The notes: a model not told the origin generated them from the sequence alone. A stretch of DNA of 64,000 nucleotides from Terriglobales bacterium (GCA_963803205.1 CAWDLG010000006.1:116977-180976), one strand, 5' to 3'; positions 12,161 to 42,641 are shown, counted from the first letter of the stretch. A program made the numbers and translations.

Positions 12161-12182
12161 GCCTGGTTGCGGAGGAATTCTG

Positions 12183-12785
12183 ATGGAACGAATCCCGATT
12201 CCCGGCGCCGAGATTTACTACGAAGCTCACTTCCTCGATGCGGAAGAGGCGACTCGCTGGCTCGAGATTTTATTGAAGAAGTGCGAATGGAGCCGCCGCC
12301 AGGGGCCGTTCGGGCATGCTGTGCCGCGGGACGAGGCGTACTACGGCGATCCCGAGACGCGCTACACCTACTCCCGCCGGGAATACAAGCCCCTCGCCTG
12401 GGTTCCGGAACTGCTTTCCTTGAAGCAACTCGTGGAGAGTGCGACTCCGGATACGGCTTATCTCACATCGGGCCTGATGCGAATTCCCTATAATGCAGCG
12501 CTCTGCAACCTCTACCGCGGTGGAAATGACAGCGTCGGACTGCATGCCGATGCCGAACCGGAAATGGGCCCGGTGATTGCGTCGGTCAGCCTCGGTGCGG
12601 AGCGTATTTTCCGGCTCAAGCGCATCGGCGGAAGCGTTGCGTTCAGTGAAAGACTGCCATCCGGCAGCCTGCTGATTATGGCGGGAGAGACGCAGCAACG
12701 CTTCCGACACGAGGTGCCGAAAGAGCCAGCAATCACAGAGCCGCGCATCAACCTCACTTTCCGGCGGATCTCGCGCGATAACTGA
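12183..12785 (+). CDS. alkB: AlkB-family Fe(II)/2-oxoglutarate-dependent nucleic-acid demethylase
   Basis: The ATG at 12183 lies in frame within ORF 12138-12785. Motifs: LYRGGNDSVGLHADAEPE (HxD), RFRHEV (distal His), RINLTFRRI (2OG-binding Arg). Confidence 0.85.
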   Translation: MERIPIPGAEIYYEAHFLDAEEATRWLEILLKKCEWSRRQGPFGHAVPRDEAYYGDPETRYTYSRREYKPLAWVPELLSLKQLVESATPDTAYLTSGLMRIPYNAALCNLYRGGNDSVGLHADAEPEMGPVIASVSLGAERIFRLKRIGGSVAFSERLPSGSLLIMAGETQQRFRHEVPKEPAITEPRINLTFRRISRDN

Positions 12786-12800
12786 CGAAGTTTGTCGACT

Positions 12801-12858
12801 TTCAATAGGCAAATTGTTTGATTTTTTCTTGACACGATCTGATCGCGATTACTACAGT
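12801..12858 (+). promoter_or_regulatory. Putative operator box plus sigma70-type promoter upstream of the GH78 gene
   Basis: TTCAATAGGCAAAT at 12801-12814; TTGACA at 12829-12834; an 18-nt spacer; (C)TACAGT at 12853-12858. The same modules recur at 22444-22532 and 31176-31229. Confidence 0.6.
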
Positions 12859-12909
12859 TCTGCGGTTCGTATTCACATATGACTCCCACGCTCGCCCGAG
12901 GTAAAAACA

Positions 12910-15900
12910 TTGGCTCGTTCCTCTTTCGTCTCCCGACTCCTGCTGGCCGTTCTCTTCCTCATCGCAGCGAATGCGTTTGCCGCTCCAGTTCATTTGCGAG
13001 TGGAGTATCTGGAGAATCCCCTCGGAATTGACGCCGCGAAGCCTCGCTTCTCGTGGCAGAGCGATAACACAGAGCGGAACTGGCGGCAGACGGCCTATCA
13101 GCTGTTTGTGGCCAGCAGCCCGGAGCGCCTCGGCAACCCCGATGTGTGGGACAGTGGCAAGCAGAGTTCAGCGGAGTCAGTCGGCATTGTGTATGGCGGC
13201 CCGAGCCTCGAATCCCGCAGGCGTTATTACTGGTCGGTGCGGGTCTGGGATGCCGATGGAAAAACGTTCGACTCTTCCGAAACGGCCTGGTGGGAAATGG
13301 GATTGTTGGAGAAGGCCGACTGGAAGGGCAAGTGGATCGGCTGGAAAAATCCGGAGAGTGAGGGGGATGAGTCTGGCATCAAGTGGCTGTGGCTGAGTGG
13401 ACAGAATCCTCTGAACGCCACGCCAAAGACCACGGTGGTTTTTCGCACCTCTGCCGACATCAGGCAGAAGCCTCGAGACGCTGCCTTGTTTATCATCGCG
13501 CGCGGTGACTATCAGGTCTCGGTGAACGGCCGGCAGGTCGACACGAAATCGGGATGGAAGTCGTTTGACCGCCACGACATCACTGATCAACTCGTGATTG
13601 GGGCGAATGTTCTCGAGATTTCAGTAAAGGTACCAGAGCCTCCGCAGTATGGTCCCGGGGCGGGCGCGAAAGCCATGACGGCCGGACTCGCGGGGCTGCT
13701 CAAGATTACCGACGCGGACGGGCGGATTACCCGCATTCCCACGAATGATCGCTGGCAGGCTCGCCTTGAGAACGAGCAAAAATGGGGAAAGGCCGGCGTT
13801 TTTTTCTCGTTGAACGACCGCCGCATGGGTGCGCTGCCAGTTCTCCCCCAGCCCGCTGCGCTGCTGCGACACGATTTCGCGGTTTCGCGCAAAGTGCAGT
13901 CCGCGCGTCTCTACAGCACAGCACTTGGCAGCTACCGGGTATTTATCAATGGGCAGAGAGTGGGAAGCGACGTCCTCACTCCGGATTTCACCGATTATCG
14001 CAAACGCCTCTTGTATCAGACGTACGACGTGACCCAATTGCTGATGGACGGAAAGAATGCCATTGCAGCCATGGTTGGCGACGGATGGTATGGCAGTCCG
14101 CTGACGTGGGAAGGAATGCGCTTCTTTCCTGCGCCCGATCGCCTCCTGGTGCAGCTTGAAATCAACTACAGCGATGGCACGCACGATGTAGTCGTCAGCG
14201 ATGGATCGTGGAAGGCTACCAGGTCACCGATTCTTCACTCGGAAATTTATGCCGGTGAACTCTACGACGCGCGACTCGCCGATCCCGCCTGGGACAAGCC
14301 GGAAACGAACGACTCCGGCTGGGCCTCGGCCGCCGTTGCCGAAGCGCCTTCGATCCTGGTCAGCAGCCAGCCCACGGCACCGGTGCACATTTCCCAATCG
14401 CTGCAACCCAGGAAAGTTACGCCTCTGGCAAACGGAGTCTACGTTTACGACATGGGGCAGAACATGGTCGGATGGGTATCTCTGAAGGTGAGCGGTAGTG
14501 CTGGAACGCGAGTTCGCCTTCGCTTCGCGGAGAGATTGAATCCAGATGGCAGCATTTATACGGAGAATCTGCGCAATGCCGATGCGACCGACCGATATGT
14601 GCTCCGTGGCGGCGGAGAGGAAACGTACGAACCGTACTTCACATTTCACGGTTTCCGCTACGTCGAACTTACCGGCTATCCCGGCGAGCCGGGTCTGGAT
14701 GCCATAACCGGCAGAGTCGCCACCAGCCTGACCGGTGGGCCGACGGCAACCCTGGATACCGCCAGTTCGATGGTCAACGACATGTATTCGATTGGCCTCT
14801 GGGGACAACGGGGCAATTTTCTGAGCATTCCGACCGACTGCCCACAGCGTGACGAACGCCTTGGCTGGATGGGGGACGCAGGAGTCTTCTGGCGGACCGG
14901 CGCCTACAACTTCGATATCGCGGCATTCTCCCAAAAATTCATGGATGACGTCTCCGACGCCCAGGGACCGCAAGGGGCGTTCACGAATGTTTCCCCGAAC
15001 GTGCTGCCCTTCGGCGGCGACTCTACGTCAGGAGCCAACGCCTGGAGTGAAGGTATGGTGGGTGCTCCGGGCTGGGGCGACGCCGGCGTCATCGTTCCCT
15101 ATACGACGTGGCTGCAATATGGCGATCGGGAAATCGTCCGCAAGAACTGGGATGCCATGCAGCGATGGATGGAATTCATTCAGGCGGCAAATCCCGATTT
15201 TCTTCGCAAGAAAGGAGTGGGACCCAACTTTGCCGACTGGCTTGCGCCCGACCCGAATACCGACAAGGATATGCTGGCCACGGCCTACTGGGCGCTGATC
15301 GCCAACATGATGCAGGAGATGGCACATGCCATCGGCGAAGAAGATGAAGCCGAGCGTTATTCCGATCTCATCGAGAAAATTCGCACTGCTTTTCAGAAGG
15401 CGTATATCAAAAGCGACGGAGTAGTCGGCACCGGAACGCAGACGTCTTACGTGGTTGCGCTTTACACGAAAATGGCAGCGCCGGCGCTCGAGCCGGCCTT
15501 AGTGAACAATCTGGTGAAAGATATCGAGAAGAGGAACTGGCACCTGTCTACGGGATTTCTAGGCACGCCTTTTCTGCTGTTCACGCTGGCGAATCACGGC
15601 CACGCAGACGTGGCTTACCGCTTGCTTTTGAACGACACGTATCCCTCGTGGGGATACATGCTGGCCAAGGGAGCGACTACCTGGTGGGAGCGCTGGAACG
15701 GCGATAGCGGCGATCCCGCCATGAATTCCTACAACCACTACGCATTCGGGTCGGTGATTGCGTGGGTCTACCGCTACGTGATCGGCATCGACACTTCTCT
15801 CGAGGGGCCGGGCTTCCGCCAGATCGTAATCCATCCGCGGCTCGATTCTCGCATGCCGCGAGCAGGAGGCGAATATGAATCGGTCTACGGCAGGATCGCA

Positions 15901-16098
15901 ACCGATTGGTCCGGAAGCCCAGGCGGTCCGTTTTCTCTGAAAGTTACGATCCCCGCGAACACGACAGCGAAGGTGTTTCTGCCGGCGGGTGAGAACGCGA
16001 AGGCGATGGAAAATGGCTCTCCCATTGATGCGCAGCGGGAGGGCGATTCGTTAGTCGTTCAGATAGGATCCGGCACTTACGATTTCAGCGTTCGATGA
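12910..16098 (+). CDS. secreted alpha-L-rhamnosidase, GH78
   Basis: TTG start. Signal peptide MARSSFVSRLLLAVLFLIAANAFA. GH78 N-terminal signature LRVEYLENPLGIDAAKPRFSWQ and the catalytic (alpha/alpha)6 block IPTDCPQRDERLGWMGDA...WWERW. Confidence 0.9.
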   Translation: MARSSFVSRLLLAVLFLIAANAFAAPVHLRVEYLENPLGIDAAKPRFSWQSDNTERNWRQTAYQLFVASSPERLGNPDVWDSGKQSSAESVGIVYGGPSLESRRRYYWSVRVWDADGKTFDSSETAWWEMGLLEKADWKGKWIGWKNPESEGDESGIKWLWLSGQNPLNATPKTTVVFRTSADIRQKPRDAALFIIARGDYQVSVNGRQVDTKSGWKSFDRHDITDQLVIGANVLEISVKVPEPPQYGPGAGAKAMTAGLAGLLKITDADGRITRIPTNDRWQARLENEQKWGKAGVFFSLNDRRMGALPVLPQPAALLRHDFAVSRKVQSARLYSTALGSYRVFINGQRVGSDVLTPDFTDYRKRLLYQTYDVTQLLMDGKNAIAAMVGDGWYGSPLTWEGMRFFPAPDRLLVQLEINYSDGTHDVVVSDGSWKATRSPILHSEIYAGELYDARLADPAWDKPETNDSGWASAAVAEAPSILVSSQPTAPVHISQSLQPRKVTPLANGVYVYDMGQNMVGWVSLKVSGSAGTRVRLRFAERLNPDGSIYTENLRNADATDRYVLRGGGEETYEPYFTFHGFRYVELTGYPGEPGLDAITGRVATSLTGGPTATLDTASSMVNDMYSIGLWGQRGNFLSIPTDCPQRDERLGWMGDAGVFWRTGAYNFDIAAFSQKFMDDVSDAQGPQGAFTNVSPNVLPFGGDSTSGANAWSEGMVGAPGWGDAGVIVPYTTWLQYGDREIVRKNWDAMQRWMEFIQAANPDFLRKKGVGPNFADWLAPDPNTDKDMLATAYWALIANMMQEMAHAIGEEDEAERYSDLIEKIRTAFQKAYIKSDGVVGTGTQTSYVVALYTKMAAPALEPALVNNLVKDIEKRNWHLSTGFLGTPFLLFTLANHGHADVAYRLLLNDTYPSWGYMLAKGATTWWERWNGDSGDPAMNSYNHYAFGSVIAWVYRYVIGIDTSLEGPGFRQIVIHPRLDSRMPRAGGEYESVYGRIATDWSGSPGGPFSLKVTIPANTTAKVFLPAGENAKAMENGSPIDAQREGDSLVVQIGSGTYDFSVR

Positions 16099-16111
16099 CG
16101 CAGCGGCCGGG

Positions 16112-17302
16112 CTAGGCGTAGGTTGTCACCACGACCGAATTGCGCTGCTTCCGTTCGGCGGTGATGCGCTCAAGATAGCCGCTCTCGCGCAACGCTTTCA
16201 TCGGATCTTCCGGGAGTCCGTGGCTGCGGCGCCAGTCTTTGAGCACCGGTCGGACGTCGGTCCAGAACGCGCCGCGTAAACACTCCTCTGCGTCAACCAG
16301 CGAACAACTCTTCTGGAGCGACGCCAGTCGCGCGTGGTCCACGATCGCGGCCTTCGCGTAAAGCTCCTGCGCGGTGCACACGGTCTGGACCATGGCCTCC
16401 ATCTTGCCCTTGAGATTGTGGCTTTGGTCAACCATGTAAGCAATGTCGGCGCGCCTGCCAATTTCCCATTCATAGACATGGATCTCGTGGAAGATGCGGA
16501 AGATCTGGTAAGGATCAATCGAGCCCAGCGTGAGATCGTCATCCGCATAGCGGCGGTCGTTAAAGTGGAACCCGCCGATCATTCCGTGATGCAGAAGCCA
16601 GGCCACGATTTGCTCGATATTTTGTGCCTGGTAGTGGTGCCCGGTGTCGACGAGCACGAAGGCCTGGGGCCCGGCCTCTCTTGCAAGAAGAAAAGCCATC
16701 CCCCAGTCCGCGATGTCGGTGTGGTAGAAGGCCGGCTCAAATGGCTTGTATTCAACCAGCAGCCTCTGTTTCGGCTCGAGGCGGGAGTGCACCTCCTTCA
16801 GCGCCTGTTCAAACCATGCGATGCGCTGGCGCATGCTCTGCGTGCCGGGATAGTTCGATCCGTCGGCAAACCAGGGCGAGATGTCCCGGCAGCTCAATTC
16901 ATTTGCAATCGCCACACAGTCGAGGATGTGGTCGAGCGCGCGCTTGCGGATGGCGGGGTCCGGATTTCCCAGTGAGCCGTATTTGTAGTCCTGATCCTGA
17001 AAGATGTTCGGGTTGATCGAGCCTGCCTGAACCCCGTACTTCTGGGCAAGGCCCTGGATTTGGCCGACGTCCTTTGATCCGTTCGGCACATCCCACTGAA
17101 CGTGCAGCGCGATGGTGGGACAGGCACCGGTCAACGCATGCACCTGGCCGGCATCGCTGAATTTGTCCTCAAGGGTGACCGCGGCCGCGGCCTGAATAAA
17201 CTTCCCAAAGCGCGTGCCAGTGTTGGCAAAACCCCAGGAGGGGAGTTCGATATTGAAATTGTCCAGCGCGCGATGTATGAGTCCTTCCGGCTTGTCAGTC
17301 AT
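16112..17302 (-). CDS. rhaI: L-rhamnose isomerase, RhaI (xylose-isomerase-like TIM barrel, P. stutzeri/rhizobial subtype)
   Basis: The internal ATG at 17302 gives MTDKPEGLIH... The motif LPSWGFANTGTRFGKF and VDTGHH...FHFNDRRYADDDL are typical of this isomerase family. It is the last gene of the rhaEW-rhaB-rhaI operon. Confidence 0.8.
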   Translation of the reverse strand: MTDKPEGLIHRALDNFNIELPSWGFANTGTRFGKFIQAAAAVTLEDKFSDAGQVHALTGACPTIALHVQWDVPNGSKDVGQIQGLAQKYGVQAGSINPNIFQDQDYKYGSLGNPDPAIRKRALDHILDCVAIANELSCRDISPWFADGSNYPGTQSMRQRIAWFEQALKEVHSRLEPKQRLLVEYKPFEPAFYHTDIADWGMAFLLAREAGPQAFVLVDTGHHYQAQNIEQIVAWLLHHGMIGGFHFNDRRYADDDLTLGSIDPYQIFRIFHEIHVYEWEIGRRADIAYMVDQSHNLKGKMEAMVQTVCTAQELYAKAAIVDHARLASLQKSCSLVDAEECLRGAFWTDVRPVLKDWRRSHGLPEDPMKALRESGYLERITAERKQRNSVVVTTYA

Positions 17303-17325
17303 GATGCCTTCCCATTCTTCAAACT

Positions 17326-18831
17326 TTATTGCGTGATCGCTGATTGTACTTCGCTCACGGTCTCGATGGCCTGACCGGCGAGGCGCCCGGCCCATTCGGC
17401 AACCCGCGAGGCCGAAACCCCCGCTCCACCTGCATCGCCGCTCTCCAAAGCGGCCAACTGAATGGCAAAATTTCCAACCGTGGTGCTTTCCGTCGATCCC
17501 TTCAGCACTTCCAGCCCGGTAGCCTCAGCCGTCAACCGGTTCAACAAGGCATTCCGGCTGCCGCCACCCACAACATAAAGACGCTTCAAAGACTTATTCG
17601 TAATCTCCGCGATGCTGCGCAAGACCGCCGCGTACCTCGCTGCGAGGCTGTGAAAGATGAGATTTGCCATTTGCGGCGCCGCATCGGCCGATACGGGCAC
17701 CGGCCGCTTGCCATTTCTTGCAAGCTGGGCACTGATACGCGCCGGCATACCGGAGGGCAGCACCAGATCGGAATCATCGACGTCCAGCAGATCCTGCGGC
17801 GGCGGGAGGGTCACACATGCCGCGAGCAGATCTTCCACCTTCCACGTATGGCCACCTGCCCGCCAGTCTTCCATGCATTGCTGTAGCAACCACATGCCGT
17901 TAACGTTCTTCAGCAGATAAATTTTTCCTCCAACTCCTCCTTCATTGCTGAAGTTCATCCGACGGGCATCGTCGCCGACGTGTGGCGAGTCGACTACACA
18001 TCCAACAAGGGACCATGTACCCGAACTTATGAACGCCCAATCGTCTCCATCGGCGGGAATGCCAGCGATGGCTGACGCCGTGTCGTGGCAGGCCGGCGCG
18101 ATCAGTCGCGTGGAGCGGAAGGCCGGCAGCGTAGCCAGCGGTCCCGTCATACGGCCGATGTCCGTACCAGGCTTGACCACTGGAGGCGCTGCGGTGACGT
18201 CTAATCCGGTAGCGGTGAAGATCTCGCCGCACCACGCTTGATCGTGAACGCCCAGCAACTGTGTGTTGCTGGCGTTGGTGAACTCCGCAACCCGCTTGCC
18301 GCCGAGATGGTAAAGCACGTATTCAGGCAGATTAAGCCAGGGCAGGGTCTGCTGCCGGGATTCGTCCGCGCACAACTGGTAGAGAGTGTTAAGAGGCAGA
18401 ATCTGGATGCCCGTGAGAGCGTAGAGTCGATCCGCGGGGATGAAGCGGTCGAAGTTCTTCAAGACTTTTGTCGTGCGCTCATCGCGATAGCAGAACGGGT
18501 TGGCGACTGGCTCGCCGTCCGGACCCAGGCGAACGTAGTCGACCGCCCAGCCGTCGACGCCAACCGACGCAATCTCGCCGGATGTGCAGGCCGCGCAGCG
18601 GCGTAGTCCTTCCTCCACGCCTTCGCAGATGCGATGAATATCCCAGCGCAGGCCGTTTTCGCCCTGCCTCGGGGCATTGGGGAAGCGGTACACCAGCTGC
18701 ATCTCCGGCCTGGAGTCGATCCATTTCAGCAATGAGACCCGGCAACTCTCGGCTCCCAGATCGACGGCAGCAAGGGTTTTTCCGCCGGGGCTGGATCGCG
18801 CGCTGCTTCGATCGTGAGGCATCAAATTCAT
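17326..18831 (-). CDS. rhaB: rhamnulokinase (FGGY family)
   Basis: The ATG at 18831 overlaps the stop of the upstream gene (ATGA). FGGY N-terminal motif AAVDLGAESCRVSLL and C-terminal YVVGGGSRNALLNRLTA. Confidence 0.85.
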   Translation of the reverse strand: MNLMPHDRSSARSSPGGKTLAAVDLGAESCRVSLLKWIDSRPEMQLVYRFPNAPRQGENGLRWDIHRICEGVEEGLRRCAACTSGEIASVGVDGWAVDYVRLGPDGEPVANPFCYRDERTTKVLKNFDRFIPADRLYALTGIQILPLNTLYQLCADESRQQTLPWLNLPEYVLYHLGGKRVAEFTNASNTQLLGVHDQAWCGEIFTATGLDVTAAPPVVKPGTDIGRMTGPLATLPAFRSTRLIAPACHDTASAIAGIPADGDDWAFISSGTWSLVGCVVDSPHVGDDARRMNFSNEGGVGGKIYLLKNVNGMWLLQQCMEDWRAGGHTWKVEDLLAACVTLPPPQDLLDVDDSDLVLPSGMPARISAQLARNGKRPVPVSADAAPQMANLIFHSLAARYAAVLRSIAEITNKSLKRLYVVGGGSRNALLNRLTAEATGLEVLKGSTESTTVGNFAIQLAALESGDAGGAGVSASRVAEWAGRLAGQAIETVSEVQSAITQ

Positions 18832-21035
18832 CGCAGGAAAGCTTCTGTCAGACCTCCATCCACGGGGACGATGTGCCCGGTGGTACACGGCGACTTCGGT
18901 CCGGCCAGGAAAAGGATGGCTTCCGCACAATCCCTGGGATCGATGGGACGGTGCGTCAGAGTTCTTTTGGCATAAAACTCCGCCAGCACGCTGCGCAGTT
19001 GATCGTCAGTCGCCGATTCGTCGAACGGAATTTCATACTTCTTGAGAGAAGCGATGACCCGATCGCGAGGGAACATCGTCGATCCCTTGATCACTGTGGC
19101 TGGGCTGATGCCGTTTACGCGAATCTTCGGAGAGAGCGCGATCGCCAGCTCGCGAACCAGATGGCTCAGGGCCGCCTTGCTTACATCGTAGGCCTCGCTG
19201 CCGCGCTTGGCGACGACTGCGTTGGCGGAACTCGTCAGGACGATCGATGCGTTGAGACTCTGGTCGCGCAGGATCTTGGCGGCCTCATCGGCCAGCAGGT
19301 AGTTGGCGGTCACGTTGAGGTCGAGGGTGATGCCCCATTGCTCGTCCGAGATACGGCCGTCGGAAGAGGAAGGGAACAAGGCGGCGGTGTTAATCAGGAT
19401 GTCGATTCCGCCGAAGGACGCAATCAGCTCCCGCAAGGATTGGCGAATGGCTTCTCGTTTGCGGATATCGGCGGAAACTGAGATTGCGCCTTCCTTGCCC
19501 GCGGCGGCCTTGGCCTCCTCCGCTACTTTCTTTGCGGCTTCGCTGTCGCGATCGGCGACCACGACGTGCGCGCCGCGTTCGGCGGCCAGCAAGGCGGCCT
19601 CGCGCCCGATTCCGCTTCCACCGCCCACGATCATGACCACGTGCCGGCTGAGTTCCTTCTCCGGAGGCTGACGGCGAATCTTGGCCTCTTCGAGCGCCCA
19701 GTATTCGATTCGAAACGCTTCCGAGAGCGGCAAGGCGACATAGTTGCAGTGGACCTGGAAAGCGTCAGTGGGAGCGGCATCTCCGGCCTGCGGCAGCGGC
19801 ACCGGAGGCCGACCCGAGTCCAGCGAAGTGGCGCCCTCCATCACGTGAATTGCATTGACATAAAATTCGCCGGTCAAACGCGATTCTGTCTTGCTTTTCC
19901 CGAAGCTGAACATGCCGATGCCGGGAATGAGAACCACTGTGGGATTTGAATCGCGCATGGCCGGTGAGTCCGGCTGGGCGAACGAGCGGTAATAGTCGGC
20001 ATATTCCTTGCGATAGGTTTCGAGCGCCGCGTCAACCTGCTTTTTCAAATCGTCCAGGTTGCCTCCCGGCGTCCAGGCGACAAACAGCGGCCGCACTTTA
20101 GTCCGGATAAAGTGGTCGGGACAACTGGTTCCAAGATGCGCGAGTTGTTTTGCGTCTTTAGAGTTGACGAAGCGCAAAACCTCAGGAAGGTCGGAGAAGC
20201 TGCCAATCATGCGACGCTGGCCGGAGACGCGTCCGCGCAGGAAGGGGAAGATATCAATTGCAAGTTCTCGCCGATTGGGCAGCTCCGCATGCAGCGGACC
20301 GCCAAATAGAGCCGAGCCCTTCTCCTCGACCTCACCTCCTACGAGCTGGCCCAACTGATCGATGATCGCGAGCGTGTTTTCGTAGCACTCCTGCTGAGTG
20401 TCGCCCCACGTAAACAGCCCGTGGCCGCCGAGCACAATTCCGTCACAGCCGGGAGCCTCCTGCACGGCGCGGCGCAACATCATCGCCAACTCGAAACCCG
20501 GCCGCTGCCAAGGCACCCAGATCAAGTGATGGCCGAAACCACGATTGAACTCCTCCATCTTCTGCTTGCCGTTCGCTGAAGCTGCGAGAGCGATGCCCCA
20601 GTCGGGATGGAGGTGGTCGATGTGGCGGAAAGGAAGAAATCCATGAAGCGGAGTATCGATGGAGGTGGCGACGCTGCTTCTGCCGAAAGTACACAGCCAG
20701 TACTGCTCGACCATTTCATCTTCGTGCTCGGCGCCGCGATAGTTGTTCTCCAGCGCGCGCAGCTTCTGAAGATACAGCGTGGCCAGGCCCGATAACTTGA
20801 TGCTGCCCAGGTCTCCGCCACTGCCTTTGATCCAGAGTACTTCCTCCTGCTTTCCGGTCAGCGGATCGGTTTGCAGAATTTTCGAACTGGTGTTGCCGCC
20901 GCCGAAGTTCGTAATGCGGAGATCCGAGCCAAGAAGATTGGAGCGGTAACGGAGCAGTTCCGGTTCGTCGAGAGTGCGCGCGATGCGTTCGTCCCAGCGG
21001 TCTTCGAGATAGCGCAAGCCGGTTTTGACAGCCAT
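18828..21035 (-). CDS. rhaEW: bifunctional L-rhamnulose-1-phosphate aldolase (class II aldolase/adducin domain) / short-chain dehydrogenase (lactaldehyde dehydrogenase-type), RhaEW-like
   Basis: The ATG at 21035 gives MAVKTGLRYLEDRWDE... The N-terminal half has an aldolase_II pattern (NFGGGNTSSK, HLHPDW). The C-terminal half is an SDR (VMIVGGGSGIGREAAL; YDVSKAAL). This architecture is the known one in rhaI-type rhamnose clusters. Confidence 0.85.
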   Translation of the reverse strand: MAVKTGLRYLEDRWDERIARTLDEPELLRYRSNLLGSDLRITNFGGGNTSSKILQTDPLTGKQEEVLWIKGSGGDLGSIKLSGLATLYLQKLRALENNYRGAEHEDEMVEQYWLCTFGRSSVATSIDTPLHGFLPFRHIDHLHPDWGIALAASANGKQKMEEFNRGFGHHLIWVPWQRPGFELAMMLRRAVQEAPGCDGIVLGGHGLFTWGDTQQECYENTLAIIDQLGQLVGGEVEEKGSALFGGPLHAELPNRRELAIDIFPFLRGRVSGQRRMIGSFSDLPEVLRFVNSKDAKQLAHLGTSCPDHFIRTKVRPLFVAWTPGGNLDDLKKQVDAALETYRKEYADYYRSFAQPDSPAMRDSNPTVVLIPGIGMFSFGKSKTESRLTGEFYVNAIHVMEGATSLDSGRPPVPLPQAGDAAPTDAFQVHCNYVALPLSEAFRIEYWALEEAKIRRQPPEKELSRHVVMIVGGGSGIGREAALLAAERGAHVVVADRDSEAAKKVAEEAKAAAGKEGAISVSADIRKREAIRQSLRELIASFGGIDILINTAALFPSSSDGRISDEQWGITLDLNVTANYLLADEAAKILRDQSLNASIVLTSSANAVVAKRGSEAYDVSKAALSHLVRELAIALSPKIRVNGISPATVIKGSTMFPRDRVIASLKKYEIPFDESATDDQLRSVLAEFYAKRTLTHRPIDPRDCAEAILFLAGPKSPCTTGHIVPVDGGLTEAFLR

Positions 21036-21127
21036 AGCGGAACCACCTTGGAGTTTGGGGGAGAGGAGCACAAACCGGCGGCGTGGCCGGGCGGCCTCCC
21101 AAGGCACCCCACATCATAACCCAGCGA

Positions 21128-21155
21128 TGCAATAGGGCAACAATTTCTATTCGAA
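21128..21155 (-). promoter_or_regulatory. Putative palindromic operator upstream of rhaEW-rhaB-rhaI
   Basis: The plus strand reads TGCAATAGGGCAACAATTTCTATTCGAA. This is an inverted pair CAATAG-N11-CTATT. The minus-strand reading TTCGAATAGAAATTG resembles the TTCAATAGGCAAATTG box at 12801. A possible TATGAT -10 lies on the minus strand at 21113-21118. Confidence 0.5.
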
Positions 21156-21219
21156 AATATGGCTTCGCCGCCGAACGGCTGCAAGCCGCACTTGTCACCT
21201 TGCCTAGATGGGGGAAGGG

Positions 21220-22341
21220 CTAGGCGCGATTCAATTCCCGAGCGGACGAAGCTGTCATCAGCTCATGCTCTACGTAGTTATAAGGAGCGACCCGCTGTCC
21301 GCTGAGCAGGGCCAGCCCGAGGTGAATCAGCCGAGGGCCGTAGGTATGAGCCTGATGCGACACTGAGCCGATAAGTGGACTGTTTCCCTGGCGCATTTCT
21401 TCGAGTGCTTCCGCGATGCAGTCCTGGCCGACAATGGCCACCTGCTTTTCGCGTTTCAGTTCGCGTACAGCCTGCACCGCGCCGAGCGCGCTGGTATCGG
21501 TGGCGGCGGCAATCAGAATGCCCTTATCCCGCGGGTGCCGCCGGAGAAAATCGTGGACCAGCTGATAGCTCCGGTCGCGCATCCCCCGGCCGTCCATTCG
21601 CAGAAAAGCGTCCTCGGGTAAAGATCGCAGCTTCGAGCGGATTGCCTCGAAGGCGCCGGTGACCCGGCTGCGGACGAGCGGCCCGGCCTCATCAATGTCG
21701 AGTCCGAGCGCCCACTTCGCCTTGCCGCCCCAGGCCTTCTTTGCATACTGGGCCAGGCATTCCCCGGCTTCGAAACCCACGCGGTAGTTATTGACCCCGA
21801 AGAAGGTCGCATGGGGGTGGGGGATGTCCACTGCAATGAAAGGGATACTGGCCCCGTCGATCTTATCCGCCAGGACCGGCGCCACATGCTGATCGATCTG
21901 AAATTCGATCAGCAGATCCACGCGATTGCGCACGAATTCATCGGCATTGCGCAGCGCAGTGGGGCCGTCGTATCGGTTGTCGAGCACGATCAGATCCACG
22001 CCTGCGGCGGAAGCGGCGCTCTTGAGGCTATCGGTCACGGCTTCGGAGAAGGGCATCTCCGCGGACTGGCTGCCAAATCCGAATCTTGCTTTTTTGGGGC
22101 GCGCCACCAGGCGGTACAGGCCGTCCTGCGACTGCGCCAGGTATCCGCGGTGCAGGAAGGTTTTCAGAATTCGATAAACGGTCGTTTTCGAGATGTTGGT
22201 CTTCTGGTAGATCGCTTCCAGCGTGAGGGCGCCGCGCTCATTTTGCAGAAGCTCCAGGATGTCGAGAGCCTTGGAAAGAACCGGAATCAGATACAGGCGC
22301 TTCGGAGCGGACCGGGTCAATGGACGTAGCCTCTTTGGCAA
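21220..22341 (-). CDS. transcriptional regulator: N-terminal winged HTH (IclR/DeoR-like) fused to a type-I periplasmic-binding-protein (LacI/RbsB-like) sugar-binding domain
   Basis: TTG start, which is uncertain. wHTH: LSKALDILELLQNERGALTLEAIYQKTNISKTTVYRILKTFLHRGYL. The remainder has the alternating beta-alpha PBP1 pattern (DLIVLDNRYD..., IPFIAVDIP..., ILIAAATDTSALGAVQAV..., AIVGQD). It lies between the rha catabolic operon and the TonB receptor. Confidence 0.7.
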   Translation of the reverse strand: MPKRLRPLTRSAPKRLYLIPVLSKALDILELLQNERGALTLEAIYQKTNISKTTVYRILKTFLHRGYLAQSQDGLYRLVARPKKARFGFGSQSAEMPFSEAVTDSLKSAASAAGVDLIVLDNRYDGPTALRNADEFVRNRVDLLIEFQIDQHVAPVLADKIDGASIPFIAVDIPHPHATFFGVNNYRVGFEAGECLAQYAKKAWGGKAKWALGLDIDEAGPLVRSRVTGAFEAIRSKLRSLPEDAFLRMDGRGMRDRSYQLVHDFLRRHPRDKGILIAAATDTSALGAVQAVRELKREKQVAIVGQDCIAEALEEMRQGNSPLIGSVSHQAHTYGPRLIHLGLALLSGQRVAPYNYVEHELMTASSARELNRA

Positions 22342-22443
22342 AGATCAAGGGCCTTATGACTATAGCGTGAAATCGCGAATCTGTTCCACAGAGGGGCGCC
22401 GACGTAGATCGCGCCGAAGCTCCAGCGAGCACAGCCGGAGGAT

Positions 22444-22532
22444 ATCAATACGGGAACTATTCTCCCTAAGTATTCAATAGGGAAACAAGTTCAACTTTTT
22501 TCTTGACAAGTATGATTCGATCTCGCTACAGT
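22444..22532 (+). promoter_or_regulatory. Two direct operator-like boxes plus a sigma70-type promoter upstream of the TonB-dependent receptor; the region is shared with the divergent regulator gene
   Basis: ATCAATACGGGAAC at 22444-22457 and TTCAATAGGGAAAC at 22473-22486; TTGACA at 22503-22508; an 18-nt spacer; (C)TACAGT at 22527-22532. Confidence 0.6.
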
Positions 22533-22647
22533 GCGCGGCGGATCGAGGGAAACCTCTAAGCCGCGGACCCCTGCCATCTCAGGAGGGGCGGGAATTGTCG
22601 AGTCCGCCTGCGGCTTCTTACTCACCGGAGAACGTGCAGGAGGAAAT

Positions 22648-26136: not shown

Positions 26137-26153
26137 CCCACACCCTTGTCAAT

Positions 26154-26190
26154 CCCGCCAGGCATGGCTTGCCTGGCGGGTCTTTTTTTT
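26154..26190 (+). terminator. Rho-independent terminator after the TonB receptor gene
   Basis: The 10-bp stem CCCGCCAGGC / GCCTGGCGGG has a 7-nt loop and is followed by TCTTTTTTTT. Confidence 0.8.
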
Positions 26191-26206
26191 GAGGTACACT
26201 TCTGCG

Positions 26207-27433
26207 ATGGTTCCCCGCGCTGGTCATTTCCTCGAAAGCGCAATCCTCCTTCTTTGTTGTTCGGTCCTGATGCTGATACCAGCCGCCCCCAATCTCAAGG
26301 CGCAGACCTCCGCGGATGCGCAGCGGTACTACGCCGAAGGGGAGCGAGCCTTGGCGGCTGGGCAGTATGAGGAAGCAGAGCAAGCGTACGAGAACCTCCG
26401 CAAGCTCGATCCCGGAACGGCTGAGGTCTATGGTCGACTCGGCCTGATTTACTTCCAGGAAGGCAAATATGAGCAGGCAGTGCCGGTGTTACGGCAGGCC
26501 CTGAAGCTCAAACCCAGTTTGCCGAGAACAGATACGCTCCTGGCGATGTCGCTGTCCGAGTTGGGGCGCTACCAGGAAGCCCTCCCGGGGCTCGAGAAGG
26601 GATTCAAGTCTTCAGACCAGGCAATCCGGCGCATGTGCGGCTTGCAACTGGAGCGGGCCTACACCGGACTGAAGCGCGACAGCAAGGCGGTGGAGGTAGC
26701 GTTGCAACTCAACCAGCTTTATCCGGACGATCCCGAGGTGCTCTACCACACGGGCCAGCTATTCGGGAATTTTGCCTACCTCTCCATGCACAAGCTGGCG
26801 GAAGTTGCTCCCGATTCTGTGTGGCGGCACCAAGCTTTGGCAGAGGCTTACGAGAGCCAGGGATCGAACGATGCGGCGATCGAGGAGTTCCGCAAGGTGC
26901 TGTCGATGACTCCGCATCGCGCCGGAATCCACTACCGGCTGGGCCGCACGCTGCTGGCACGATCCAGGCAGACTACGTCCGCTGCGGACACCTCGGAAGC
27001 GGCCAAAGAGTTCCAGCAGGAACTGGACATTGATCCCAGCAATGCCAATGCGGACTATGAACTGGGCGAAATCCACCGCAATGCCGGAGAGTTTGACGAA
27101 GCACAAAAGTATTTTGAGATGGCCCTCAAGCATTACCCGGACTTCGAAGAGGCGCACCTGGGCCTGGCGGCGGTACTCGTCTCACAACAAAAACCGGCAC
27201 TCGCGCTGCCGCATCTACAAAAAGCCATCGCCCTGAATAAGGAGAATGAAGTGGCCTGGTACCGGCTCTCGCAGGTGCAGGGAATGCTGGGGAATGCCGC
27301 CGAGCGCCAGAACGCATTTGCGGAATTCCAACGCCTCAAGGGCCAGAAATCTGCGCAGCAGGAGGCAGAAAAACAAACGTTTTCGCCAAACGAAGTTACC
27401 CGGCAGGAAGTTGGCCCGGAAACAGCGCAATAA
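26207..27433 (+). CDS. secreted tetratricopeptide (TPR) repeat protein
   Basis: ATG at 26207; the TTG at 26189 lies inside the terminator T-tract. It has a signal-like N-terminus and multiple TPR units (A..YE.A...Y...L.L.P....A...LG..Y...G.Y..A). Confidence 0.8.
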   Translation: MVPRAGHFLESAILLLCCSVLMLIPAAPNLKAQTSADAQRYYAEGERALAAGQYEEAEQAYENLRKLDPGTAEVYGRLGLIYFQEGKYEQAVPVLRQALKLKPSLPRTDTLLAMSLSELGRYQEALPGLEKGFKSSDQAIRRMCGLQLERAYTGLKRDSKAVEVALQLNQLYPDDPEVLYHTGQLFGNFAYLSMHKLAEVAPDSVWRHQALAEAYESQGSNDAAIEEFRKVLSMTPHRAGIHYRLGRTLLARSRQTTSAADTSEAAKEFQQELDIDPSNANADYELGEIHRNAGEFDEAQKYFEMALKHYPDFEEAHLGLAAVLVSQQKPALALPHLQKAIALNKENEVAWYRLSQVQGMLGNAAERQNAFAEFQRLKGQKSAQQEAEKQTFSPNEVTRQEVGPETAQ

Positions 27434-27435
27434 TT

Positions 27436-29190
27436 CTAGGATTTCTGAAAACCAAGGCCAGGGACGATTCCGCTTCCTTCCTTAACTGTGACGAGCCGGT
27501 TTGCCTCTACGTCGGCCAGAGTCTGCCAGATGCCATTGGGCCAGCGGACGCGCACCTCTGCTGTCTTCGCCGATCCCAGCCCGAAGTGCAGACGCGGATC
27601 GTTGCACGACAGAAAGCTCGACTGGCTCTGCACTTCCTGAGTTTGAGTAGAGGTCTGGGTTTTCACAATCACGCGGGCGCCAATCGCGCTGCGATTCGAT
27701 TTCGTGCCTACGAGTTTCACCTTCAGCCAGTTGTGCCCAGCCTTCAGATCGTTTCTCAAAAGAGATGGCGGCTCGTTCAGATTCACGATCAGAATGTCCA
27801 TATCTCCGTCGTTATCGAAGTCCCCAAATGCGCAGCCTCGGCTCACGTGGGATTCCGCAAGCGCCGGACCGGCGCCCTCCAGCAGTTCTTCGAACTTCCC
27901 CTTGCCCAGGTTGCGGAACAGGAGCCTGGGTGAGCGCGCAGGATACCCGGAATATTTCTTCTCGATCTCAGGAAACACGTGGCCAGTCACCGCGAAGAGA
28001 TCGGGCAGGCCGTCGTTATCGAGATCAACGATGCCCGCACCCCAGCCTACAAAGCGATTGTCGACCGCAAGGCCGGTGCGGCGGGTGGCTTCCTCGAAAT
28101 TGGCCTTGCCAAGATTGCGGTAGAGGTTCGGCGTGTCGTCGGCGAAGTTGGTCTTAAAGATGTCGAGGTGCCCATCCAGATCGAAGTCGCCGGCGGCTAC
28201 TCCCATACCAGCCTGCTCCTGGCCGTCCTCGCTGTAGGCCACGCCGCGAATGGCAGCTTCCTCGCGGAAGGTTCCGTCACGATTGTTGAGAAAGAGCAGG
28301 CTGGGTGTTGAATCGCACGCGACGTAAATGTCGGGCCATCCGTCGTCGTCGAAGTCGCCGGCGATTGCGGTCAGGCCATAGCTGTTCTTCGCGTTGGCGA
28401 TTCCCGATGTTGTGCTGACGTCCGTGAAAGTCCCGTCTCCGTTGTTGCGGTAGAGGCTGTGGCGGCCGAACGGAAAGCCCCGGGGGCCGCAATTGACGGG
28501 CATCCCGGACCAGCGGCAGTTTGCCGTCTGTCCGGGCTTGGGGGTTTTTGCCAGGTCAAATTCGAGGTAGTTCGAAACAAACAGGTCGAGGTGTCCGTCG
28601 CGGTTGTAGTCGATGAATGTGCAGCCCGATCCCCAGCGGGGAGCAGCCTCGAGCAAGCCTGCCGCGCGAGTTACATCGGTGAAGGTTCCGTCGCCGTTGT
28701 TGCGGTAGAGAACGTTCTGGCCCCAGTAGGTAACGAACAGATCTTCGAAGCCATCGTTGTTGTAATCGCCGACGCAAACGCCGCAGGCCCAGCCCGTTTT
28801 CAGTAAGCCTGCTTTCTCCGTTACGTCGGTAAAGGTTCCGTCGCGGTTGTTTTTGTACAGCCGGTTGCTGGCGCCTTCCGGGGCGTCGGCCAGGCGCGTG
28901 CCCGAAAGCAGAAAGATGTCGAGCCAGCCGTCGTTGTCGTAGTCAATAAACGCGCAGCCGCAGCCGATGGTCTCGAGAATGTACTCTTTGTGGTCTGCGG
29001 GGCCGTAAATAACGCTGGCTTTCAAGCCGGCCTGCGGGGCGATGTCGGTGAAGCGAGCGTCGAAGGGTAGCCCGGACGGCTTTCCGCGGGGTTGCACCTG
29101 CGCTTTGTGAGTGGAAACGCCCTGGCCCAGGCACGCGGCCGCCGATGCGCTGAAAAGGCCAGAGAGAAACAGTCGCCGGGAAGTGTCCAT
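27436..29190 (-). CDS. CRTAC1-family protein (FG-GAP/VCBS repeats plus a C-terminal ASPIC/UnbV domain), with a Tat-like signal
   Basis: The N-terminus MDTSRRLFLSGLFSASAAAC resembles a twin-arginine motif. There are repeated D.DNDGWLD / GDYNNDGFEDLF / NRDGHLDLF / DFDDDGWPDI / DLDGHLDIF / DLDNDGLPDLF / DFDNDGDMD FG-GAP calcium-binding loops. The C-terminal GARV...SQSSFLS..DPRLHFGLG is the ASPIC/UnbV signature. Confidence 0.85.
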   Translation of the reverse strand: MDTSRRLFLSGLFSASAAACLGQGVSTHKAQVQPRGKPSGLPFDARFTDIAPQAGLKASVIYGPADHKEYILETIGCGCAFIDYDNDGWLDIFLLSGTRLADAPEGASNRLYKNNRDGTFTDVTEKAGLLKTGWACGVCVGDYNNDGFEDLFVTYWGQNVLYRNNGDGTFTDVTRAAGLLEAAPRWGSGCTFIDYNRDGHLDLFVSNYLEFDLAKTPKPGQTANCRWSGMPVNCGPRGFPFGRHSLYRNNGDGTFTDVSTTSGIANAKNSYGLTAIAGDFDDDGWPDIYVACDSTPSLLFLNNRDGTFREEAAIRGVAYSEDGQEQAGMGVAAGDFDLDGHLDIFKTNFADDTPNLYRNLGKANFEEATRRTGLAVDNRFVGWGAGIVDLDNDGLPDLFAVTGHVFPEIEKKYSGYPARSPRLLFRNLGKGKFEELLEGAGPALAESHVSRGCAFGDFDNDGDMDILIVNLNEPPSLLRNDLKAGHNWLKVKLVGTKSNRSAIGARVIVKTQTSTQTQEVQSQSSFLSCNDPRLHFGLGSAKTAEVRVRWPNGIWQTLADVEANRLVTVKEGSGIVPGLGFQKS

Positions 29191-29205
29191 CGCCTGAGTC
29201 TCAGC

Positions 29206-29523
29206 CTACTCCAGGTAGAAGACCTCTTTCATCATGGCGAAACGCTCCCCGGGTCGAAGATCGGGAACGGGCTCAAAGTACTTCGACATTTCCTCCTGCC
29301 AGCGGAGGTTGACGGGATCCTTCGCGAGCTCGTCCCAGGCCTTGTCGAAATCCGCGACTTTCATGACCAGAAACAAGTCCCGGTCGCGGCGAAATACCGA
29401 ATAGTCGGAGATGCCGACTTCCTTCAGCTTCGCCCGCAATTCGGGCCATACGTTCAGGTGGTCGCGGTCATAACCCTCGATTGCATCGGGCTTGAGACGC
29501 AGGCGAAATGCCATGCGCGGCAT
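29206..29523 (-). CDS. rhaM: L-rhamnose mutarotase
   Basis: 105-aa ORF collinear with E. coli RhaM/YiiL: ...YDRDHLNVWPELRAKLKEVGISDYSVF...RWQEEMSKYF...EVFYLE. Confidence 0.9.
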   Translation of the reverse strand: MPRMAFRLRLKPDAIEGYDRDHLNVWPELRAKLKEVGISDYSVFRRDRDLFLVMKVADFDKAWDELAKDPVNLRWQEEMSKYFEPVPDLRPGERFAMMKEVFYLE

Positions 29524-29558
29524 GAGAACAGTCCTCCATCAGAGTTTCCGCAGGCGGC

Positions 29559-31073
29559 TCATGGCAGTGTCACGGCTGCCACCTCGAATCCGCCGAGCGT
29601 GATCGTATCGCTGTCCATTTTCGCAGAGGCCGGCGGATCGAAGGCCGTTTTCTGGTCGACGTATTCCACCTGTGCGCCGGATGCTCCATCGATCGTAACC
29701 TTCATCTCGCGGTCGCGTTTGTTCACCAGCAGAACGCGCTTCTTGCCGTCCCTGGTGACGATCGGCAGTGAGTACAGATAGGGAGACGGAGAGCCTCCAG
29801 CACCGGCGATGCCGACCACCTTATCGCCGGGGCCAAAATTGTCGTGCAGGAGCTTCAGCACCCAGTAGCGCGCATTAGGCTTGCCATTGGTCCAGTCCAC
29901 CATGGAAACGCTCGGGAACTGCGTGGGATAGCCGACCAGTTGTGACTCGCCCGCTACATCCACTCCGATGGTGGTCAACTCGCCGAAAATGTAGGCATAC
30001 ATCGCTCCTGCCAGGTTCCAGTAGGAATTAGGAATCGGCTCGGCGACATACCCCGGCTGGCCTTGCTTCAGATCATCGGCAGAAATGCTGCCGATTTCAT
30101 TGATCGTGGTTCTGGTCTCCGGTGAAAGGCGCTTACGGATGCTCTCGATGTAACGCACGACGTTGAGGAACCCATCCGCCTGTGTGAAGAAGGTGTACTG
30201 CTGCACTTCGGAAGTCTGGTCGGGGGTGGGCACGGCGTAGAAGTGATAAGAGATGAAATCCAGCGGAACGCCTGCCTTGTGGTTCTTGTGATTCAGGAAG
30301 TACTCGAAGAATTCCGGATGCCCTGAGGGGAAGGCCAGCGACCCGCCCACGAATTTCGTCTGCGGCTGCACCTTCTTCATGGCAGTCACCACGGCGTCAT
30401 AAATCTTTGTGTATTTTTCGCCCGTGAGGTTGCGCTCGAGGTCCGGTTCGTTGAGAACCTCCCAGTAGGGAATCGAGTAGTGATGGTCCGACTCGTGCCG
30501 CTTTCCAAGTTCGTCGGTGAAGCCGCCCTGCGTGTACCACGCGAGCAGTCGAGCGTAGTAGTCGCCCACTTCTTTGTAGGTGGGATCGCGAAACTCGCTG
30601 CCTTTCTCGTAGTCCCATGTGACCTCATCTGGATCGGCTGGGTAGGAGGAGGGCTGATCGGACTTGAACATCCACTGCGGAATCGTGCTGAAGTTCAGGA
30701 CTACGGAGTGCCCCTTGGTGGCTTCGAGGAAATCGATGGTCATGGGATCGATGAGCGAAAAATCCCACGAAGTCTTGCCATCCTTGAGGGGCTCCAATTC
30801 GGCTACGCCAAGTCTCGGGTAAGGCAGCCATGGAACATAGCGCACGTAGTCGGCGCCGAGATCCTTCAAAGCCTGAAAAGCGTTGTCGTGAACTGGAGTG
30901 CCGCGACGCAGCGGCGGGTTCACAACTACCTGGAGGGTAGGAGTTGTTTGTGAGATGCGAACCTGGTTTCCCCACTCGACTTTGAGTTGGACGGGTTCAT
31001 CGGCAGCCGCCCCGACCGCAGGCAGGAGTACCAGGCAGGCCATTACGCACCACATCCAGAATGCACGTTTCAT
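29559..31073 (-). CDS. secreted clan GH-A glycoside hydrolase, GH39-like
   Basis: The ATG at 31073 gives the signal peptide MKRAFWMWCVMACLVLLPAVGAAA. The acid/base-type motif YWEVLNEPDL and DFISYHFY resemble the GH39 blocks (WNEPN; DF.S.H.Y). The family assignment is tentative. Confidence 0.6.
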   Translation of the reverse strand: MKRAFWMWCVMACLVLLPAVGAAADEPVQLKVEWGNQVRISQTTPTLQVVVNPPLRRGTPVHDNAFQALKDLGADYVRYVPWLPYPRLGVAELEPLKDGKTSWDFSLIDPMTIDFLEATKGHSVVLNFSTIPQWMFKSDQPSSYPADPDEVTWDYEKGSEFRDPTYKEVGDYYARLLAWYTQGGFTDELGKRHESDHHYSIPYWEVLNEPDLERNLTGEKYTKIYDAVVTAMKKVQPQTKFVGGSLAFPSGHPEFFEYFLNHKNHKAGVPLDFISYHFYAVPTPDQTSEVQQYTFFTQADGFLNVVRYIESIRKRLSPETRTTINEIGSISADDLKQGQPGYVAEPIPNSYWNLAGAMYAYIFGELTTIGVDVAGESQLVGYPTQFPSVSMVDWTNGKPNARYWVLKLLHDNFGPGDKVVGIAGAGGSPSPYLYSLPIVTRDGKKRVLLVNKRDREMKVTIDGASGAQVEYVDQKTAFDPPASAKMDSDTITLGGFEVAAVTLP

Positions 31074-31175
31074 AAGGAGTCCTCTGTTAGCTGGAACGCT
31101 TCGCGGCGCCCAATATGTGCCGTAACACAGTGCAGAAAGTGTGGCGTGCCATTGTGCATCGCCCGCCCGCGTGTT

Positions 31176-31229
31176 TTCAATAGGCAAATTAACTTACTAT
31201 TGACAAATCCCGGCGGGCGCAGCTACAGT
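31176..31229 (+). promoter_or_regulatory. Palindromic operator plus divergent promoters between the GH39-like/rhaM operon and the isomerase-rhaT operon
   Basis: TTCAATAGGCAAAT at 31176-31189 is one arm of TCAATAG-N13-CTATTGA (31177-31203). On the plus strand: TTGACA at 31200-31205, an 18-nt spacer, (C)TACAGT at 31224-31229. On the minus strand: TTGAAA (31175-31180), an 18-nt spacer, CACAAT (31151-31156). Confidence 0.6.
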
Positions 31230-31318
31230 TCATGCGCTTTAAAGGATTTGCCTGCGGCGCCGGGCCTGAACCATCGAACAGCCCTCCCGGGAAGCTCCGC
31301 CAATTTAGAATTCCTTCC

Positions 31319-33965: not shown

Positions 33966-34042
33966 AGGCGGTTGTGGGCGAGCATGCTATACCGTCTTCA
34001 AAGTTTTCCGAAACCGACTTCCACAGTGCATAATTGTCTGCC

Positions 34043-42608: not shown

Positions 42609-42641
42609 GACCCCTCGTTTTTGAAACGAGGGGTCTTTTTT
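42609..42641 (+). terminator. Rho-independent terminator after the small hydrophilic ORF
   Basis: The 11-bp stem GACCCCTCGTT / AACGAGGGGTC has a 5-nt loop and is followed by TTTTTT. The T-tract abuts the stop codon of the convergent AsmA gene. Confidence 0.75.

Follow-up and report, generated by a model that had tools for sequence, protein, structure and literature searches.

A conserved palindromic operator of rhamnose and pectin genes in Terriglobales and a candidate regulator with an IclR-type winged helix and a sugar-binding domain

In Bacillus subtilis, the regulator AraR joins a GntR-type winged helix to a LacI-like sugar domain, and it is a proven repressor that governs a regulon for pentoses and plant polysaccharides from multiple or tandem operators, from which it is released by the sugar. 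For rhamnose, regulons have been reconstructed in six phyla with regulators of the AraC, DeoR and LacI families; Acidobacteria were not covered, and no regulator that combines a winged helix-turn-helix (wHTH) with a domain of the periplasmic binding protein (PBP) type was among them (Rodionova et al. 2013, PMC3870299). A gene for such a wHTH-PBP protein lies in the rhamnose locus of a Terriglobales bacterium, on the 64-kb stretch of DNA that is analysed here (GCA_963803205.1, CAWDLG010000006.1:116977-180976; called the window in the following, with positions counted from its first nucleotide). The original prediction for this stretch had been that a repeated 12-nt box, together with a promoter of the form TTGACA-N18-TACAGT, marks the transcription units of the rhamnose locus as a single regulon, that the wHTH-PBP protein is its regulator, and that no operator of an acidobacterial rhamnose regulon had been described. 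The last point agrees with the literature searched, in which no description of an acidobacterial rhamnose regulator, operator or IclR-PBP fusion was found, the six phyla mentioned above all being other ones. The box itself belongs to a longer motif with dyad symmetry, which is conserved across Terriglobales and restricted to genes of rhamnose and pectin utilisation.

Operator sites, their anatomy and their conservation

In the window, TTGACA-N18-TACAGT occurs three times, always on the + strand (promoters of the GH78, TonB-receptor and isomerase-like genes in Table 1), whereas none of 100 dinucleotide shuffles of the window gave any match. The agreement of the three promoters in hexamers and 18-nt spacer is thus beyond chance, as had been claimed. 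The box TCAATAGGSAAA is found without mismatch at 12802, 22474 and 31177, and with two mismatches at 21129 and 22445. The bare hexamer CAATAG occurs at chance level (13 found, 13 expected) and was rejected as the signal, which therefore resides in a longer motif. A scan of both strands with a 23-nt weight matrix gave only four strong sites, all of them between genes of the rhamnose locus, with scores from 27.9 to 29.5 bits. The reverse-strand image of the 31176 site, at 31182, scored 24.1 bits, the site at 22444 was weak, and further sites of at least 10 bits were absent from the window. All four cassette sites were recovered where they had been placed, but the boxes at 22444 and 22473, which had been read as a pair of direct repeats, are of very unequal strength (14.5 and 29.5 bits). 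A match on the minus strand at 43799-43810, TCAATAGGAAAC, was considered as a sixth site and rejected, as it lies inside an open reading frame (ORF) of 567 residues (42641-44344), scores below 8 bits and is a chance match with two mismatches.

The 12-nt box is a real repeated element, but it is not the whole operator for which it had been taken. It comprises the left arm and part of the core of an imperfect palindrome of 27-29 bp with the consensus TTCAATAG-G-GAAAT-A-ATTTC-n-CTATTGAA. Symmetry was measured on the frequency matrix, as the mean correlation of each column with the complement of its mirrored column, and it reached r = 0.76 about position 15 and at most 0.34 about any other centre. 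As this test singles out one centre, two other readings were rejected, namely a palindrome of the inner part alone about position 19.5, and direct repeats with a period of 17 (TTCA...). Most of the information is held by the outer arms TCAATAG and CTATTGA, which are spaced 20 bp centre to centre, and there is hardly any variation in the left arm, where each position holds about 1.3-2.3 bits. The inner core, GGAAAT-A-ATTTC, is an A/T-rich palindrome like operators of the IclR type, and it resembles the IclR box of Escherichia coli, TGGAAATNATTTCCA, and the A/T-rich boxes of the IclR/KdgR/AllR group (PMC8222616, Table 1); the outer arms have no counterpart in the consensus of that group.

Conservation was analysed in 80 related loci of Terriglobales/Acidobacteriaceae, gathered by a scan of species-representative genomes and amounting to 1.56 Mb together (single loci are given below by L-numbers). 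They come mostly from metagenome-assembled genomes, with Paracidobacterium acidisoli 4G-K13 (L054) and Granulicella rosea DSM 18704 (L079) among them, and their regulators are 68-86% identical to the one of the window. A refined matrix was trained on these same 80 loci; such circularity is avoided by another matrix, for which only the four sites of the window were used. The window-only matrix found 209 sites of at least 16 bits where 7 were expected from Markov simulations, and 166 of at least 20 bits where 0.5 were expected, with matches in 75 of the 80 loci; as many loci belong to closely related metagenome-assembled genomes, such counts overstate the number of independent events, which has to be held against the reading given here. 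With the refined matrix, 310 sites were obtained (250 distinct places including the window), 5 of which lie inside recognised coding matches, and 263 are at most 400 nt away from where a homologue of a window rha gene starts. Most of the remaining sites precede genes of the GH106 alpha-L-rhamnosidase, GH88, GH28 or KduI. The target genes altogether are rhaEW-rhaB-rhaI, rhaT, rhaM and the genes of GH78, GH106, the GH39-like protein, the TonB receptor, GH88, GH28 and KduI.

The genes of GH106 (about 1133 residues), GH88, KduI and GH28 are absent from the window locus, and their sites lie at L009:~20577, L002:~20040, L072:~14311, L059:3265 and 13994, and L079:3102. As these sites carry the regulon into rhamnogalacturonan breakdown, it would span the catabolism of rhamnose, its uptake and its release from rhamnogalacturonan. 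The motif is over-represented, conserved at orthologous promoters and limited to functionally related genes, as can be expected of a regulon operator. The matrix scan had been proposed as a check, and its matches concentrate before rhamnose and pectin genes in the window as well as in the 80 loci. The idea of a single regulon under one DNA-binding protein is strengthened by this, the motif being present at orthologous promoters in 75-77 of the 80 loci with a regulator orthologue, almost only in intergenic DNA.

Also the individual sites of the window are conserved. At rhaEW, the operator-promoter block is almost invariant in about 60 loci, with CAATAGGGCAACAATTTCTAT of the operator and TATGATA of the promoter both retained. 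The TonB-receptor site has orthologues, TTCAATAGAGAAAYAARTTCACTWTTTTC, in about 32 distinct loci, and tandem upstream sites at a distance of 26-30 bp are found at the same promoter in L032, L034, L040, L044 and L046. The palindromic operator between the GH39-like and isomerase-like genes is conserved in at least 21 loci, and GCACAATGCTGC of the GH39-like/rhaM promoter, including its -10, in 21 loci. It could be argued that the cassette is a recently duplicated promoter or small repeat without any regulatory meaning, since the three window copies have identical hexamers and spacer lengths, and since an upstream segment of about 57 nt is duplicated in L046. However, spacers and flanks of the window copies are completely different, species with 68-86% identical regulators have retained each copy at the orthologous promoter but not the flanking DNA, and the motif also occurs without a TTGACA-N18 promoter, at rhaEW and rhaI. 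No bounding repeats or target-site duplications were seen at the copies, and a mere duplication is thus hardly conceivable.

Promoters, regulator and direction of control

Operators and promoters are arranged in three classes, in which the -35 follows the start of the operator at a distance of 24 nt (isomerase/rhaT), 27 nt (GH106) or 29 nt (TonB receptor). In all three, a position of the operator or the hexamers holds 1.6-1.9 bits, compared with 0.2-0.4 for the upstream 40 nt. In the isomerase/rhaT class, the right arm CTATTGA overlaps the TTGACA. Among the matches to TTGACA-N17/18/19-TAnnnT in the 1.56 Mb, 101 are operator-linked, and 87 of these 101 have the 18-nt spacer; the -10 hexamers at operator-linked promoters include TACAGT (42), TAAAGT (27) and TAGAGT (20), and thus have the form TAnAGT rather than TATAAT. 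Promoters of the type TTGACA-N18-TAnnnT are in turn almost exclusively operator-linked in the 80 loci, and of nine that had first been scored as box-free most are linked to an operator in another geometry. The 18-nt spacer, described earlier as unusually long, is real, but it is conserved together with TAnAGT in regulon promoters across species and hence not peculiar to one genome. Likewise, the cassette as predicted exists at three promoters, and the promoter TTGAAA-18-CACAAT on the opposite strand was recovered by the consensus scan at 31180..31151, but the cassette does not extend to all units: rhaEW has a different promoter with a TATGAT -10, and there the operator is inverted, with its centre about 24 nt upstream of the -10, so that it covers the -35 and the spacer. 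Hexamers and spacing are present and conserved, and putative promoters of the sigma-70 type can be assigned on this basis. An Rfam scan of the 5' untranslated regions found no riboswitch or leader.

The regulator has a winged helix at about residues 20-78, which matches HTH_IclR (PF09339) with 52.5 bits (residues 22-70, E = 4e-14, cut-off 22), followed by a sugar domain at about residues 86-365 that matches Peripla_BP_4 (83.9 bits) and Peripla_BP_1 (36 bits) and is RbsB-like. The NCBIfam matches, all far below the full-length cut-offs, are PcaR/PcaU, KdgR and BhcR at the N-terminus and RbsB, AlsB and MglB at the C-terminus, and no curated NCBIfam model for the regulator came near its cut-off. 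The Pfam matches did not include the C-terminal domain for effector binding and multimerisation that is characteristic of the IclR family with its proteins of about 250 residues, nor a LacI helix-turn-helix (HTH) at E <= 0.001, a GntR domain or DeoR domains. With an AlphaFold model of the regulator (predicted local distance difference test, pLDDT, 77.7), Foldseek aligned the C-terminal part only, to ribose-, galactose- and arabinose-binding proteins (target-normalised TM-score 0.80-0.85), and when the PDB was searched by sequence and by fold for a counterpart of the whole protein, only isolated binding proteins and isolated IclR N-termini were returned. The regulator is thus chimeric, with a DNA-binding head of the IclR type and a sugar pocket of the transporter type, and not a strict member of the IclR, LacI, GntR/AraR or DeoR families. 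There are 252 relatives at E <= 1e-30 among 1.84 billion cluster representatives, with about 60 full-length paralogue clusters of 29-45% identity. Other relatives of about 560-600 residues carry a homologous sugar-binding domain at the C-terminus (residues about 270-555) in a different architecture. In L046, a 40%-identical paralogue of the regulator is encoded at 11159-12259 on the minus strand, tail to tail with the orthologue, and both genes are preceded by the same sequence of about 57 nt (9830 +, 12428 -) with the variant box TACAATAGCTAAATCGTTTTTTT, as if regulator and promoter had been duplicated together.

It is presumably this protein that binds the operator. In nearly all of the 80 loci, its gene adjoins rhaEW, rhaB, rhaI, rhaT, rhaM, or the genes of GH78, the GH39-like protein or the TonB receptor, in varied arrangements, and the IclR-box type of the inner core fits the IclR-type DNA-binding domain, so that the candidate named in the original prediction is supported by its linkage, by the operator core and by its own winged helix. 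One could object that the operator is real but bound by a different transcription factor that is encoded elsewhere, in which case the wHTH-PBP protein would recognise something else. All 80 loci were gathered via the regulator, and its co-occurrence with the motif is therefore partly by construction, which weakens the argument from linkage; in addition, neither sites nor rha genes were detected in L042, which does have the regulator. But the regulator is the sole regulator-like gene in the rha locus of the window, the core matches its helix type, and the recognition helix ISKTTVYRILKT and the CAATAG half-site are both invariant across the loci. Autoregulation would fit with the sites that several loci have immediately before the gene of the regulator. 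In L054, L060 and L069, an operator lies 13-16 nt from its start codon, and in loci with divergent regulator and rhaT genes the distance between the palindromic operator and the regulator start is 44-91 nt. Binding by another factor is thus quite improbable. A test for covariation of helix and half-site was uninformative because of the invariance of both. In the window, a TATAGT at 22359-22364 on the minus strand, about 39 nt upstream of the regulator start codon and conserved as GTTATAGTC in relatives, is a candidate -10 of the regulator's own promoter; no consensus -35 or strong operator overlaps it there.

As to the direction of control, which had been left open, the positions of the operators favour repression, and the regulator is probably a repressor that acts at the 27-29 bp operator and is released by rhamnose or a close metabolite. 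In the absence of sugar, the regulator (21220-22320), as one dimer or as two dimers together, would occupy operators that abut or overlap the -35 of the TTGACA-N18-TAnAGT promoters, or lie over the -35 and the spacer in the case of rhaEW, and would block RNA polymerase; L-rhamnose or a close derivative would bind to the sugar domain and thereby release the regulator. Five units of the window would be controlled in this way, namely GH78, rhaEW-rhaB-rhaI, the TonB receptor (possibly with the TPR protein), the GH39-like protein with rhaM (possibly with the FG-GAP/ASPIC protein), and the isomerase-like gene with rhaT and the FMN dehydrogenase.

Geometry favours this reading. The box had been expected upstream of or overlapping the -35, which holds for GH78, the TonB receptor and isomerase/rhaT, but elsewhere the operator lies over the spacer, over the -10, downstream of it or in the leader. 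The rhaEW operator is centred near -36, the operator overlaps a TACAAT -10 at the GH78 promoters of L001-type loci, it follows the -10 in L041 and L045, and in Acidobacteriaceae loci it is found directly next to the ribosome-binding site of rhaI. At several promoters, it is thus core promoter elements or the leader that are covered, as would be expected of a repressor. Helical phase is not maintained with the distances of 24, 27 and 29 nt to the -35. The varied positions, the lost phase, the perfect -35 and the sugar-binding domain all favour a repressor.

The same protein could also act from the same sites as a rhamnose-dependent activator, or have a dual function, and recruit RNA polymerase from just upstream of the -35. 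RhaS and RhaR of E. coli and the IclR-family regulators PobR and PcaU activate from sites reaching the -35, and activators are found among IclR-type and other sugar regulators in general. At three of the five window promoters (GH78, TonB receptor and isomerase/rhaT), the operator is upstream of or barely overlaps the -35, with a centre at about -46 to -51, which is compatible with activation, and the 18-nt spacer and the TAnAGT in place of TATAAT would weaken the promoters; by E. coli standards they are sub-optimal and could call for activation. These points weigh against repression, and to them must be added that the right arm of the operator is degenerate at most sites and that the rhaEW site fits a dyad with N11 and not with N13. 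However, the 5-bp variation in spacing would place an activator on different faces of the helix, with the perfect consensus -35 an activator is seemingly not needed, and operators over the -35 and spacer, over the -10, downstream of it or next to a ribosome-binding site are positions that an activator could not use. Activation is therefore unlikely, and a sugar-released repressor remains the preferred explanation.

More tentatively, the regulator may be the first of an uncharacterised family of one-component sugar sensors that combine an IclR-type winged helix with an RbsB-like binding protein of the ABC-transporter type and read a composite operator as a dimer of dimers, with nested half-sites, IclR-like inside and TCAATAG outside; that such nesting would suit a dimer of dimers is speculation. 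The operator and its near-consensus promoter might then constitute a portable unit before many Terriglobales genes for carbohydrate-active enzymes and transport. As the outer half-site has TTGA in common with the -35 hexamer, operator and promoter would travel together.

Genes of the rhamnose locus

The ORF products of the window were typed by Pfam and NCBIfam profiles, and the resulting genes are listed with the operators and promoters in Table 1. The first in-frame starts of the ORFs for the TonB receptor (22531), the isomerase-like protein (31232), RhaEW (21107) and the GH39-like protein (31187) lie inside promoters or operators or adjoin them, which is why the true starts must be downstream; for rhaEW, a position of about 21035 is probable from the public gene call with 735 residues. 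A strong hairpin like that of an intrinsic terminator, with a stem of 11 base pairs, 9 being G-C, and a T8 tract behind it, is present at 26154-26180 on the + strand, between the end of the TonB-receptor gene and the start of the TPR gene, and these two genes may thus not be fully co-transcribed. The isomerase-like gene encodes a putative second isomerase beside the bona fide RhaI, in an operon with rhaT and the LldD-like FMN dehydrogenase. Its product has Fucose_iso_C/Arabinose_Iso_C domains, its similarity to SftI (sulfoquinovose isomerase) and AraA is weak and far below cut-off, and the gene adjoins an operator in more than 20 loci.

Table 1. Operators, putative promoters and genes of the rhamnose locus; positions refer to the window.
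Feature	Position	Strand	Description
GH78 operator	12801..12829	+	TTCAATAGGCAAATTGTTTGATTTTTTCT; left arm strong, right arm degenerate; ends at the -35; 28.0 bits
rhaEW-rhaB-rhaI operator	21128..21150	+	TGCAATAGGGCAACAATTTCTAT; inverted relative to transcription; 29.5 bits
Weak auxiliary operator	22444..22466	+	ATCAATACGGGAACTATTCTCCC; precedes the main TonB-receptor operator by 29 bp; 14.5 bits
Main TonB-receptor operator	22473..22501	+	TTCAATAGGGAAACAAGTTCAACTTTTTT; divergent regulator/receptor intergenic region; 29.5 bits
Shared divergent operator	31176..31204	both	Near-perfect palindrome TCAATAG-N13-CTATTGA; each arm overlaps one -35; 27.9 bits
GH78 promoter	12829..12858	+	TTGACA 12829-12834, 18-nt spacer, TACAGT 12853-12858; drives ORF 12910-16098
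Putative rhaEW promoter	21113..21140	-	TTGCCC 21140..21135, 16-nt spacer, TATGAT 21118..21113; consensus scan
TonB-receptor promoter	22503..22532	+	TTGACA, 18-nt spacer, TACAGT
GH39-like/rhaM (and FG-GAP/ASPIC) promoter	31151..31180	-	TTGAAA, 18-nt spacer, CACAAT
Isomerase-like/rhaT/FMN dehydrogenase promoter	31200..31229	+	TTGACA, 18-nt spacer, TACAGT
GH78 alpha-L-rhamnosidase	12910-16098	+	Pfam/NCBIfam
Catabolic operon rhaEW-rhaB-rhaI	16112..21107	-	Pfam and NCBIfam
RhaI, L-rhamnose isomerase	16112-17395	-	Pfam/NCBIfam
RhaB, FGGY kinase	17326-18930	-	Pfam/NCBIfam; 501 residues in public gene call
RhaEW, rhamnulose-1-phosphate aldolase / lactaldehyde dehydrogenase	18828-21107	-	NF006189, 997 bits; 735 residues in public gene call
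Regulator	21220-22341 (longest ORF); 21220..22320 (publicly called, 366 residues)	-	IclR-type winged helix and Peripla_BP_4
TonB-dependent receptor	ends 26136	+	True start probably near 22596
TPR protein	26189-27433	+	
FG-GAP/ASPIC protein	27436-29190	-	
RhaM	29206-29523	-	
GH39-like protein	29559-31187	-	
AraA/FucI-like isomerase homologue	31232-32761	+	
RhaT	32790-33965	+	
FMN-dependent dehydrogenase, LldD-like	34034-35257	+	

Significance and comparison with known systems

Acidobacteria belong to the most abundant bacteria of soils and play an important part in the degradation of plant polymers, and their transcription regulation is hardly explored. What is gained here is an operator model, five mapped candidate promoters, and a candidate regulator with a combination of domains that is absent from curated families and solved structures. 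The regulon ties the catabolism of rhamnose to its release from rhamnogalacturonan (GH78, GH106, GH28, GH88) and to uptake through the outer membrane by the TonB receptor, and the regulator would add another non-orthologous type to the seven or more that are known for rhamnose. For cultured relatives such as Granulicella and Paracidobacterium, this can be a starting point for inducible expression, and should operator and promoter indeed form a portable unit, a ready-made rhamnose-inducible switch would be at hand for a phylum that is short of genetic tools.

Among the described rhamnose systems, the LacI-family regulators RhaR of Actinomycetales, RhmR and RhiR (PMC3870299) share with the window locus a local regulon of catabolism, transport and rhamnosidases, a type I PBP fold, and palindromes before several operons. 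They differ in that they bind a 20-bp palindrome with a LacI HTH, whereas the window system has an IclR-type winged helix and an operator of 27-29 bp with TCAATAG arms. The same holds for the LacI/GalR family in general, whose type I PBP sugar domain is present in the window regulator while its HTH is not. The DeoR-family RhaR of Rhizobiales, Bacillales, Chloroflexales and Thermotogales recognises direct repeats with a period of 10-11 bp, and the AraC-family RhaS/RhaR of Enterobacteria and Bacteroides recognise tandem repeats of the AraC type (both PMC3870299), in contrast to the dyad of the window motif; these systems also control genes of the rhaEW/rhaB/rhaI or rhaBAD type from sites adjoining the promoters, but their protein families are unrelated to the window regulator. 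The group of IclR, KdgR and AllR (PMC8222616) has the same type of wHTH and a similar operator core, KdgR also controls pectin degradation, and tandem sites and tetramers are common in that family, but the window regulator has an RbsB-like PBP domain in place of the IclR C-terminal domain, and its operator has the additional outer arms. AraR is alike in the general layout of wHTH and PBP domains, and differs in the winged-helix family, in the motif and in being experimentally proven. In its logic, the system would be an ordinary sugar regulon of the local kind, without a new principle, but the architecture of the regulator and the operator have not been described before. The closest functional analogues are the actinobacterial RhaR of the LacI type and AraR of B. 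subtilis, and the closest analogue in DNA recognition is the IclR/KdgR group.

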